Assembly: GCA_964599215.1 (NCBI GenBank)
Contig: CAZRDV010000005.1
Location: 1 to 58,317, forward strand
DNA: 58,317 nt
Reading direction: 5' to 3'
Source of the DNA: an uncultured archaeon
GTDB lineage: Archaea > Aenigmatarchaeota > Aenigmatarchaeia > GW2011-AR5
Made by a program: the position numbers and the translations under genes. The first letter of the stretch is position 1. Every line of letters begins with the position of its first letter. The notes beneath the pieces were generated by a model. The model was not told the origin of the DNA, did no database searches, and saw only the letters and a list, made by a program, of their open reading frames with translations. Below, piece by piece: positions 54,313 through 57,002 of the stretch.

Positions 54313-55755
54313 TCAGTAGGCCTTTGCTATATACACTACGTGCGAAGCAGGCTTTCCACAAACTATGCATTTGCCAGCTGGCTTTTCTTTCTTATTAAAA
54401 AGCACACCGCGGACCTCTGCACCAAGGCTCTTTTCTATGCGCTCTGCGCAGGCCTCGCCTTTTTCATCAACGGAACAGAAATTGACCTTGACAAAACCGC
54501 CTTTCTCCATCATTTTTTCCAGCTCGTTAAAAGAGCCTGCCTCTTTTATATTCGATTCAGAATACTTTCTGGCAGCTGACCTGAGGCTCTTTGTCATCTC
54601 ATCAAGCTCGCTACGTACCGTTTTCTCCAGCTCTTTTTCATCTATAGTGATCTTCTTGCCATCTCTTCTTACCAGGGTAACCTGGTTCTTTTCTATATCC
54701 TTCGGCCCTATCTCTATTCTTAGCGGCACGCCTTTCATTTCCCATTCATTAAACTTGAACCCAGGCCTGTAGTTTCTTTCATCAAGCAGCGTTCGGAATT
54801 TGTCTAGCCTCTTGTTAACCTCAACTGCTTTTTTCATGACGTTCTTTTCTCTTCCTTTTAGCAGTATAGGCACAATGACTATCTGCAATGGCGCTATGTC
54901 AGGCGGAAGTACAAGGCCCTTATCGTCTCCGTGAAGCGAGATTACAGCCGCTGCTATTCTCGAGATACCAGGGCCAAAGCAGGTTTGATACACTAAATTC
55001 TTCTTGCCTTTCTCATCTGTGAAGCTTATGTCAAACGGCTTTGAGAATCTCTGCCCGAGATTGTGTGTGGTGCCGATTTGCAGTGTATTGCCATCAGGTA
55101 TTATTATTTCATAGGCATAGCTGGATTCTGCACCTGGGAACCTGTCCCAGGACGGCCTCTCGAAGAGTAGGAACGGTATGCCAAGCTCCGACAGGACAGC
55201 CTCAAAGATGCGCATATCTTCTTTTACCTGTTTTACTGCAGCTTCGTTGCTCTTCTGGGCAGTATGCGCCTCTATCCAGAAGAACTCTCTACCGCGCATC
55301 AGCGGCTTGGTCATTTTTGTTTCATATCTGTAAACCTGTACTGTCTGGTAGAGCTTTAGCGGCAGGTCGCTGTACGACCGTATCCACAAAGAATACATAG
55401 GATAAAATGCAGTTTCAGAAGTAGGCCTTAGGAACAAGCGCTCATCAAGCTCGTTCTTTCCTGCATGCGTTATCCAGAATACCTCATTCTCAAAGCCCTT
55501 TACATGCTCCTCTTCTTTCTTCAGGCTGCTTTCTGGTATGATTACAGGAAAGTTTACAGGCCTGTGCCCTGTCTTTTCCAGCTCTTTTTCTAAGGCATTG
55601 GCAATCTGCCTTATGATGAACATGCCCCACGGCATGTAGATTGGGAAGCCTTTTACAGGGTATCTTTTATCCAATATACCGCACTTGTCTATAACCTCAA
55701 GATACCATTTGCCGAAATCGCTCTTACTGGCTTTTATACCAAGTTCCTCTGACAT
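54313..55755 (-). CDS. proS: Prolyl-tRNA synthetase, archaeal/eukaryotic type
   Basis: RPTSET, RYETK..PL.R.REF.W.E.HT, GTTHNLG, C-terminal CIVCG...AKAY. Confidence 0.98.
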   Translation of the reverse strand: MSEELGIKASKSDFGKWYLEVIDKCGILDKRYPVKGFPIYMPWGMFIIRQIANALEKELEKTGHRPVNFPVIIPESSLKKEEEHVKGFENEVFWITHAGKNELDERLFLRPTSETAFYPMYSLWIRSYSDLPLKLYQTVQVYRYETKMTKPLMRGREFFWIEAHTAQKSNEAAVKQVKEDMRIFEAVLSELGIPFLLFERPSWDRFPGAESSYAYEIIIPDGNTLQIGTTHNLGQRFSKPFDISFTDEKGKKNLVYQTCFGPGISRIAAAVISLHGDDKGLVLPPDIAPLQIVIVPILLKGREKNVMKKAVEVNKRLDKFRTLLDERNYRPGFKFNEWEMKGVPLRIEIGPKDIEKNQVTLVRRDGKKITIDEKELEKTVRSELDEMTKSLRSAARKYSESNIKEAGSFNELEKMMEKGGFVKVNFCSVDEKGEACAERIEKSLGAEVRGVLFNKKEKPAGKCIVCGKPASHVVYIAKAY

Positions 55756-55793
55756 AATATCATTTGTCTCTGGCTATTTATAAATTCCAAAAA

Positions 55794-55925
55794 TGGGTTC
55801 GCCCGGATTTGAACCGGGGTCTTAAGCTTTTTAGTTGGAAGGCAGAAGCCTCCTTTTCGCTTAAGCCTTTTACTGAAAAAGGCTTACCCTAAGCTTAGAT
55901 GCTAACCAAGCTACACCACGAACCC
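55794..55925 (-). tRNA. tRNA-Pro(AGG) with a 58-nt intron at 37/38
   Basis: Acceptor GGGTTCG/CGAACCC plus A73, D arm, TAAGC/GCTTA anticodon stem, loop TT-AGG-G|intron|A, T arm CCCGG-TTCAAAT-CCGGG; CCA not encoded. Confidence 0.9.
55829..55886 (-). other. tRNA intron with BHB-like splice motif and two internal hairpins
   Basis: Exon 32-35 TTAG pairs with intron CTAA; 3' bulge AA|A; internal stems TAAGCCTTTT/AAAAGGCTTA and GGAGGC/GCC(T)TCC. Confidence 0.85.
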
Positions 55926-55952
55926 TGATAATATTTCAGAACAAGACTTAAA

Positions 55953-56924
55953 TCACTTCTTTATTCGGATAAAGAAACCATCTGACATCTCCTGCAAGAA
56001 TTTGTTCATGCGCTGCCTAAAGGAATCATCTATTTCTGACAATCTCATGACTTTATCATCCAAGATAATCTTAGGGTCAGTATATCTTATCTTAGTTTTT
56101 ATATGCATGTCATATTTTTCTTTGTTTTCTTCGACCTTGATGTTATATATCAGATCAAGCTTATCTGTTATTTCCTTGTCATTGCTGCCTTTTAATTTCT
56201 TATAAAGTTCGGCATCTGTCAGAAATATATCATTTTCCGAAGCTATACCTTTTGAAATTGCTATAGCTATCGCATCTGACAATAGTTTGAACAGGGCTGA
56301 TTGAAGCGGATTCGCCCAGAAGACCTTGTTCATCTCTATAAAATTTTCTGCAAGATACCTTGCTGCTTCCTTATCTATGAAAACAAGCTCATTTTCATGA
56401 ACAACCAGGCTGTTCAATATATAATTGATTTTAGTTTTATCTATTCTATTGAATATTAAGCTATCCCTCAGAAAGTAATCCAAACTATCTGCACAGATAT
56501 CAGGTATATCTTTTTTCATTATTCTGAAATCACCATCTATTATTTTATTAACACTGATTCCGTGCTTTTCCAGCACAGCAGGTATTTCTGAATTCATTAC
56601 AAATTTTTTGTATGACCTGTCAGCAGTATCCTGTTTCTCGCTTCTGTTGTACATATAATCCAAGACATGGGAAAAGGCAGTATGAGAAACGTCGTGTAAA
56701 AGACCTGCTATCTGCTCCTCTAGGGAAGCACCTAATTTTTTTAGAAGAATACAAACACCGACAGAGTGCTCAAATCTTGTTGTATCAAACTCTGGGTTGG
56801 TTACTACCCATGACCCGTATTGATTGATGCCTTTAAGCCTCTGCATAGATTTCGTATTAATTAGGTCTATTATAACCGATTCGGTGATATCCATACTACC
56901 ATAGACTTTGTCTTCATATATCAT
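55953..56924 (-). CDS. HD-domain phosphohydrolase (YwfO/SAMHD1-like, possible dNTPase)
   Basis: QRLKGINQYG, TRFEHSVGV, GLLHDVSHTAFSH, ADSLDYFLRD. Confidence 0.9.
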   Translation of the reverse strand: MIYEDKVYGSMDITESVIIDLINTKSMQRLKGINQYGSWVVTNPEFDTTRFEHSVGVCILLKKLGASLEEQIAGLLHDVSHTAFSHVLDYMYNRSEKQDTADRSYKKFVMNSEIPAVLEKHGISVNKIIDGDFRIMKKDIPDICADSLDYFLRDSLIFNRIDKTKINYILNSLVVHENELVFIDKEAARYLAENFIEMNKVFWANPLQSALFKLLSDAIAIAISKGIASENDIFLTDAELYKKLKGSNDKEITDKLDLIYNIKVEENKEKYDMHIKTKIRYTDPKIILDDKVMRLSEIDDSFRQRMNKFLQEMSDGFFIRIKK

Positions 56925-56928
56925 AGAA

Positions 56929-57002
56929 TGGGTCTGCCCGGATTTGAACCGGGGTCTTAAGCTCCCAAAGCTTAGATGCTAACCAAGCTACACCACAGAC
57001 CC
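56929..57002 (-). tRNA. tRNA-Pro(TGG), intronless
   Basis: GGGTCTG/CAGACCC acceptor, loop TT-TGG-GA, canonical D and T arms. Confidence 0.96.

Follow-up and report, generated by a model that had tools for sequence, protein, structure and literature searches.

A tRNA-Pro gene with an encoded A34 anticodon, split by an intron, and the scattered replacement of tRNA-Pro(GGG) in a class of DPANN archaea

Results

The window, by which we mean the whole 58,317-nt stretch of DNA analyzed here, carries on its minus strand a complete tRNA-Pro gene that is interrupted by an intron and encodes an adenosine at the first position of its anticodon, AGG. Along that strand the order of genes is tRNA-Pro(UGG), an open reading frame with an HD domain, tRNA-Pro(AGG) and proS, and the HD-domain gene separates two tRNA-Pro genes that are 1 kb apart. 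The features are as follows.

55794..55925, minus strand: complete pre-tRNA-Pro(AGG) gene, 132 nt, discriminator A73, CCA not encoded (sequence)
55887..55925, minus strand: 5' exon, 39 nt, tRNA positions 1-37, ending UU-AGG-G (sequence, BHB scan)
55888..55890, minus strand: anticodon A34-G35-G36, with A34 at 55890 (read in the sequence; the loop UUAGGGA is also found in intron-less orthologues)
55829..55886, minus strand: intron, 58 nt, at the canonical site 37/38, with hairpins AAGCCUUUU/AAAAGGCUU and GGAGGC/GCCUUC (BHB scan, fold)
55889..55892, minus strand: 5' strand of the central BHB helix, U32 U33 A34 G35 (four of four pairs with intron CUAA)
55831..55834, minus strand: 3' strand of the central BHB helix, CUAA, with U opposite A34, followed by the 3' bulge AA/A at 55828-55830 (the slash marks the splice site)
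55794..55828, minus strand: 3' exon, 35 nt, tRNA positions 38-73 (sequence, BHB scan)
55789..55793, minus strand: T5 run directly after the discriminator (...ACCCA TTTTT GG; sequence)
55948..55953, minus strand: ATTTAA, 23-28 nt upstream of the tRNA 5' end (sequence)
54313..55755, minus strand: proS, archaeal-type prolyl-tRNA synthetase (ProRS), starting 38 nt downstream of the tRNA (Pfam tRNA-synt_2b, HGTP_anticodon and ProRS-C_1)
56929..57002, minus strand: tRNA-Pro(UGG), an intron-less close paralogue (ARAGORN; Rfam tRNA, 61.7 bits)

The minus strand of 55794-55925 reads GGGTTCGTGGTGTAGCTTGGTTAGCATCTAAGC-TT-AGG-G, then the 58-nt intron, then A-GCTTA-AGAC-CCCGG-TTCAAAT-CCGGG-CGAACCC-A. The acceptor stem is GGGUUCG/CGAACCC and the anticodon stem is UAAGC/GCUUA, with U8 and a D arm of GUGU-AGCUUGGUUA-GCAU on one side and a T arm of CCCGG-UUCAAAU-CCGGG on the other. 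The body has what is expected of an archaeal tRNA-Pro, namely, a 7-bp acceptor stem starting from G1-G3, U8, A14, G18G19, the T-loop UUCAAAU, and A73. Within the anticodon loop, U32 U33 A34 G35 G36 G37 A38, the pair G35-G36 and G37 (the m1G37 site) are those of tRNA-Pro. The T5 run is probably an archaeal transcription stop, and ATTTAA could be a TATA-box-like element; we regard both as suggestive.

The intron was placed with a purpose-written scan for bulge-helix-bulge (BHB) motifs, in which each spliced product was judged by ARAGORN. The best splice falls after nucleotide 39 of the gene (G37) and before A38 and removes 58 nt; the central helix UUAG/CUAA has all four pairs, the 3' bulge is AA/A, the 5-bp outer helix is the anticodon stem, and the spliced 74-nt product is called tRNA-Pro(agg) by ARAGORN. 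This is the 37/38 geometry put forward in the preliminary description of this DNA, with TTAG (32-35) paired to intron CTAA and a U opposite A34, and the sequence, the BHB scan and the call on the spliced product together confirm what that description had claimed, that 55794-55925 is a real, intron-split tRNA-Pro gene with an encoded A34.

Compared with a strict hBHBh' motif, the precursor has the complete central helix, the 3' bulge and the 5-bp outer helix, but the inner helix h' is absent beside the 5' bulge and the intron folds into two hairpins instead, and we therefore class the motif as relaxed (hBH). Archaeal pre-tRNAs with relaxed-BHB introns at 37/38 were reportedly described by Marck and Grosjean in 2003. 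The present intron resembles such hBH introns in its canonical site, in a 4-bp central helix formed from positions 32-35 and in a 3' bulge of 3 nt that adjoins the anticodon stem; it differs from them in that its 5' splice site faces a three-way junction, formed by the two intron hairpins, where they have a simple bulge and h'. In the fold, this site accordingly lies in a multi-branch loop and not in a clean 3-nt bulge. In ViennaRNA, the minimum-energy structure slides U32/U33 onto a run of A and is 6 kcal/mol more stable than the BHB cloverleaf, so that thermodynamics alone does not prove the register.

A close relative of the gene is found next to it. The mature AGG and UGG tRNAs differ at five positions, which are N34 and two acceptor pairs, and are otherwise identical. 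The acceptor pairs are U5-A68 and C6-G67 in the AGG tRNA versus C5-G68 and U6-A67 in the UGG tRNA; comparison of the sequences thus bears out the compensatory change (TTC/GAA versus TCT/AGA) reported earlier, as both pairs are altered on both strands. A third proline gene, tRNA-Pro(CGG), lies on another contig (C8:31873-32004) and has a homologous intron at the same site as the AGG gene. Its precursor helix, UUCG/AGAA, forms three of four pairs, with G opposite C34, and the intron partner of N34 thus covaries with it, U facing A34 and G facing C34.

The intron itself recurs elsewhere. A homologous copy interrupts tRNA-Gly(CCC) (C10:26113-26241), and a common module, AAGCCUUUUU-loop-AAAAGGCUU-AGCGAAAAGGAG-hairpin-CUUCC, is present in the AGG gene (55829-55886), the CGG gene (C8:31911-31969) and tRNA-Gly(CCC) (C10:26149-26206). 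BLAST searches with the gene found the module in relatives as well, at six places in G007 and also in G001, G039 and G048. From its sequence, it looks like a transposing family of tRNA introns. We considered a second anticodon cassette inside the intron and rejected it: the 7-nt loop of the second hairpin occurs in the AGG gene only, and the CGG paralogue has a tetraloop there.

Adjacency to proS, to which the preliminary description had drawn attention, holds in the window, where proS lies directly downstream, but it is not conserved in relatives, even beside a ProRS gene whose product is 86% identical.

To place the gene among its relatives, we surveyed 371 species-level genomes of the class with two pattern scans and a paired-D-stem filter and inspected 18 full-length loci. 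The stricter pattern matched just 97 of the 371 genomes, and a looser pattern was then used; its false positives were removed by hand (G144 and G146, where tRNA-Lys(CUU) is followed by an intron, and G081, a tRNA-Val(UAC) with an intron). Beyond G319, the genomes G324-G327, G354, G355 and G361 come from the stricter scan, and G328, G337, G353 and G358 lie outside the classification. The genome that holds the window (G000), from a tiny DPANN archaeon, is an assembly of 784 kb in 15 contigs, 86% complete, and by ProRS it is closest to MAGs that carry the label Candidatus Aenigmatarchaeota.

A34 is not a miscall, since full-length tRNA-Pro(AGG) genes exist in about 18 other genomes of the class, and the anticodon is unambiguous because several of those genes have no intron. 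ARAGORN finds an intron-less tRNA-Pro(AGG) with the loop UUAGGGA in G043 (Rfam, 53.3 bits) and makes an intron-less call in G012 too, and the genes of G013, G064 and G048 are intron-less at 74 nt. AGG genes of full length, in which the acceptor and T arms are intact, were seen in G003, G011, G013, G064, G065, G042, G048, G049, G052, G113, G319, G354, G355 and G361. Where other AGG genes carry an intron, U again lies opposite A34 (CUAA in G065, CUGA in G042 and G113, AUAA in G049). The adenosine seen first in the window is thus retained among its relatives, in genes with and without introns.

The relatives' genes vary in layout. In L187 (G003) and L016 (G012), tRNA-Pro(AGG) and tRNA-Pro(UGG) stand in tandem, about 45-50 nt apart, and an intron in the 3' strand of the anticodon stem interrupts the AGG genes of both genomes and the UGG gene of G012, the UGG gene of G003 having none. 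The AGG gene adjoins the UGG gene of the same genome in G000, G003 and G012, and the two are near-identical in G000 and G012; this suggests that duplication of the UGG gene or gene conversion between the copies gave rise to their similarity. In L188 (G011), L197 (G319), L198 (G354), L200 (G355) and L202 (G052), the T-loop or T-arm is interrupted by a second, long intron, which either accompanies the one at 37/38 or stands in its place. In a pair of genomes from one genus, L194 (G125) and L195 (G124), the AGG gene equals the GGG gene with G34A, plus a C27-A43 mismatch and a broken T-stem pair, which may reflect decay or a contig of low quality.

AGG genes were found in at least 19 genomes (G000, G003, G011, G012, G013, G064, G065, G042, G048, G052, G043, G049, G113, G125, G215, G319, G354, G355 and G361), which span families f1, f7, f8, f18, f20, f24, f38 and f40 and are scattered among genomes with tRNA-Pro(GGG); the latter gene is present in at least 113 genomes of the class. 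Among the 371 genomes, at least 18 have AGG only, at least 112 have GGG only, and at least 1 (G215) has both, all these counts being minima because most genomes gave no match at all, their proline genes being interrupted elsewhere. Among the matches listed, the odds ratio for co-occurrence is 0.12 (one-sided Fisher test, P = 0.008). The order to which G000 belongs has about 12 AGG to 14 GGG genomes. In G000 itself, tRNA-Pro genes for UGG, CGG and AGG are present and tRNA-Pro(GGG) was not found in the 86%-complete assembly, a point that the preliminary description had proposed to check. Given that G000 has just these three genes and that AGG and GGG are nearly exclusive across the class, AGG acts as a replacement for GGG and not as an additional gene. 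In the one genome with both, locus L186 (G215:C4:2050-2350) holds the GGG gene and a differently built 74-nt tRNA with the loop CUAGGGC (AGG), a candidate whose proline identity is uncertain.

The wobble position was then considered across the other codon boxes. After several ARAGORN calls had been corrected by hand, G000 was seen to keep G34 in Leu(GAG), Val(GAC), Ser(GGA), Thr(GGT), Arg(GCG) and Gly(GCC); this bears on the question raised earlier of further anticodons starting with A, A34 being confined to proline in this genome. The suggested search for a deaminase agrees with the lack of TadA and ADAT2/3 that the preliminary description took as established for archaea: no frame of the six-frame translation of the 86%-complete G000 assembly contains the motif HAE...PCxxC, nor did PF00383 or PF14437 match there, and no TadA-like gene was found. 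In other AGG genomes, genes of the cytidine deaminase (CDA) fold are ComEB/dCMP-deaminase-like and occur in the GGG genomes G090, G009, G026 and G124 too, while six AGG genomes had no CDA-fold gene in searches with PF00383 and PF14437. CDA-fold genes therefore do not track AGG in the relatives. A TadA-like protein is encoded by one AGG genome only, G319, and scores 81 bits against an equivalog cut-off of 150.

Elp3 modifies U34, and the resulting xm5U restricts U34 to codons ending in A or G. Elp3 is present in most relatives, of the AGG and GGG types alike, with scores of 560-700 bits (TIGR01211) in every other genome of family f1 tested, which makes it probable that U34 of tRNA-Pro(UGG) is modified and limited to A- and G-ending codons. 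It was not found in the 86%-complete G000 assembly, where the sole match is weak (C3:31383-31724); in this genome, Elp3 is either in the missing 14% or lost. Because U34 is probably limited in this manner, a separate reader of CCU and CCC would be required, and tRNA-Pro(AGG) is probably needed.

Among the proline codons of G000, CCT makes up 38%, CCC 8%, CCA 29% and CCG 25%, and a count thus agrees with the earlier impression that CCT is common: it is the commonest of the four. The fraction U/(U+C) is 0.82 for proline versus 0.58 for the other boxes of G000. This proline-specific bias does not differ between 9 AGG and 12 GGG genomes (Mann-Whitney test, P = 0.70), and codon usage is therefore not diagnostic of A34. 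CCC is as frequent as CCU in the AGG genomes G043, G052 and G113, which would fit I34 no less well than A34.

Discussion

The presence of a tRNA-Pro gene with an encoded A34 in place of tRNA-Pro(GGG), in this genome and in scattered relatives, raises the question of how CCU and CCC are read. The preliminary reading of the locus is supported in its gene, its A34, the helix partner of that base, the absence of GGG, the occurrence in relatives, the absence of a deaminase and the frequency of CCT. Our preferred explanation is that the gene probably gives rise to a working tRNA that reads CCU and CCC, most likely via an unmodified A34. In the series of events that we infer, the gene would be transcribed into a 132-nt precursor; a splicing endonuclease (EndA types are reviewed in PMC5829648) would cut the relaxed BHB, in which U32-G35 are paired with intron CUAA; and the exons would be ligated, CCA added and the tRNA charged by ProRS. 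The AGG tRNA would then stand in for tRNA-Pro(GGG), reading CCU and CCC beside tRNA-Pro(UGG) and tRNA-Pro(CGG). Left unmodified, A34 would pair with U in Watson-Crick geometry and also accept C, since two G:C pairs in a CCN codon render its third position permissive. That AGG is scattered among GGG relatives would be easiest to explain if the substitution at position 34 took effect immediately and needed no new enzyme.

Laboratory work in bacteria fits this explanation. According to two papers that both cite Chen et al. 2002 (PMC11066159; bioRxiv 10.64898/2026.05.15.725136), bacterial tRNA-Pro(AGG) stays unmodified, reads CCU about as well as CCC and serves all four proline codons, and neither Salmonella nor E. 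coli loses fitness by it. The proL G34A mutant of Salmonella (Chen et al. 2002), E. coli proL G34A and orthogonal tRNAs, as these sources present them, have the same anticodon in place of GGG. They are laboratory constructs whose A34 was shown to be unmodified, whereas the archaeal AGG tRNA is natural and conserved.

An alternative, which we hold to be unlikely, is that A34 is converted to inosine by a still unrecognized archaeal wobble deaminase, so that tRNA-Pro(IGG) reads CCU, CCC and CCA as in eukaryotes. The near-constant absence of the G34 isoacceptor where A34 is present is the pattern that accompanies I34 in both eukaryotes and bacteria (PMC8879553), CCC equals CCU in frequency in several AGG genomes, Fujishima et al. 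remarked in 2011 on the likeness of ARMAN-4 and ARMAN-5 to eukaryotic decoding (PMC3239211), and the AGG genome G319 encodes the low-scoring TadA-like protein. Yet no CDA-fold gene was found in the 86%-complete assembly of G000, and those of its relatives are dCMP-deaminase-like, accompany GGG as well and are missing from six AGG genomes. The restriction of A34 in G000 to the proline box also argues against inosine, as does the dispersal of AGG genomes among those with GGG in at least seven families, a distribution that is easier to reach without a new enzyme; moreover, bacterial TadA leaves tRNA-Pro(AGG) unmodified in the accounts cited above. The known I34 systems, eukaryotic tRNA-Pro (AGG to IGG, via ADAT2/ADAT3) and bacterial tRNA-Arg (ACG to ICG, via TadA), likewise start from an encoded A34 and have lost the G34 isoacceptor, but they need a CDA-fold deaminase, of which none was found in G000, and eukaryotic I34 covers seven or eight boxes as opposed to the single box here. 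That scattered lineages of this DPANN class, G000 included, make I34 in tRNA-Pro with a deaminase unrelated to TadA/ADAT strikes us as a long shot. If true, it would be the first case of decoding by wobble inosine in archaea, with an origin independent of the eukaryotic one.

It is very improbable, in our judgment, that the AGG gene is a duplicate of tRNA-Pro(UGG) that is decaying or not expressed, with CCU and CCC read by superwobbling of the UGG tRNA or by a GGG gene in the unassembled 14% of the genome. The few differences between the mature AGG and UGG tRNAs, at N34 and two acceptor pairs only, are what a recent duplicate would show, the assembly is incomplete, and the AGG gene of G125 has extra mismatches in the anticodon and T stems relative to the GGG gene of its sister G124. 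However, the acceptor-stem changes in G000 are compensatory, the invariant tRNA positions and the BHB pairing are all intact, and AGG has been kept in about 19 genomes from at least seven families, with varied bodies and intron layouts and in near-complete exclusion of GGG, while Elp3 in the relatives speaks against superwobbling by U34. Next to no weight can be given to an error of assembly or sequencing at A34, or to splicing of the intron at other sites that would yield a mature anticodon other than AGG, since the loop UUAGGG recurs in many independent assemblies, intron-less genes included, the intron base opposite A34 is U, the intron hairpins offer no alternative anticodon arm that the paralogues share, and the only other BHB-like site with a Pro-like product (after nucleotide 46; ARAGORN Pro, anticodon ggg) would leave A33 and U37, mismatches in the anticodon stem and a tRNA that lacks a variable loop, and is impossible in the CGG paralogue.

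Archaea are described in recent papers as having neither A34 tRNAs nor TadA/ADAT (PMC11066159; bioRxiv 10.64898/2026.05.15.725136; PMC8879553), and one survey counted 3 anticodons starting with A among 10,517 archaeal tRNAs in GtRNAdb. The preliminary description had taken this absence as its premise, which agrees with the surveys but is too absolute: in the ultrasmall archaea ARMAN-4 and ARMAN-5, tRNA-Pro(AGG) replaces GGG and is accompanied by tRNA-Leu(AAG) (Fujishima et al. 2011, NAR 39:9695, PMC3239211). Replacement of GGG by an A34 tRNA-Pro is therefore already published for another DPANN lineage, although it is little known. Like G000, the two ARMAN lineages are DPANN archaea with an encoded A34 in tRNA-Pro and without the synonymous G34 tRNA, and their genomes abound in BHB introns. 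The present lineage is a different one, its nearest relatives by ProRS being Aenigmatarchaeota; in contrast to ARMAN-4 and ARMAN-5, G000 keeps Leu(GAG) (C8:7898-7981), and proline alone is affected. A further difference is that the distribution has been counted here, with AGG in 19 of about 131 informative genomes and nearly excluding GGG. Our literature search found no paper that describes tRNA-Pro(AGG) for this lineage or quantifies it.

About one in seven informative genomes of the class have thus swapped tRNA-Pro(GGG) for AGG, which offers a natural experiment, run repeatedly, on the usual avoidance of A34. The outcome fits the laboratory results in that the proline box tolerates unmodified A34, and it supplies concrete targets for asking whether any archaeon makes wobble inosine. 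The surveys that report no archaeal A34 are based on genomes that come from cultures or are well annotated, and the tRNA finders behind them overlook DPANN genes rich in introns. In our hands, default ARAGORN and an Rfam search at the gathering threshold missed the pre-tRNA-Pro(AGG) gene in the window, and ARAGORN -i misplaced the intron and called Phe(aaa) for the AGG gene and the CGG paralogue alike; annotation of DPANN tRNAs therefore needs BHB-aware tools.

Other loci of G000 were also reinterpreted by hand. ARAGORN calls C2:15510-15647 Pyl(cta); its sequence fits a tRNA-Lys(CUU) with two introns, one after position 31 and one in the 3' strand of the anticodon stem (CCUGA / CUCUUAAUC / AGG...). 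C8:13248-13374, called Phe(aaa) by ARAGORN, reads as a tRNA-Ala(UGC) with G3:U70 and two introns, in the D-loop and at 37/38, and C9:48319-48413 reads as a tRNA-Val(UAC) with a D-loop intron.
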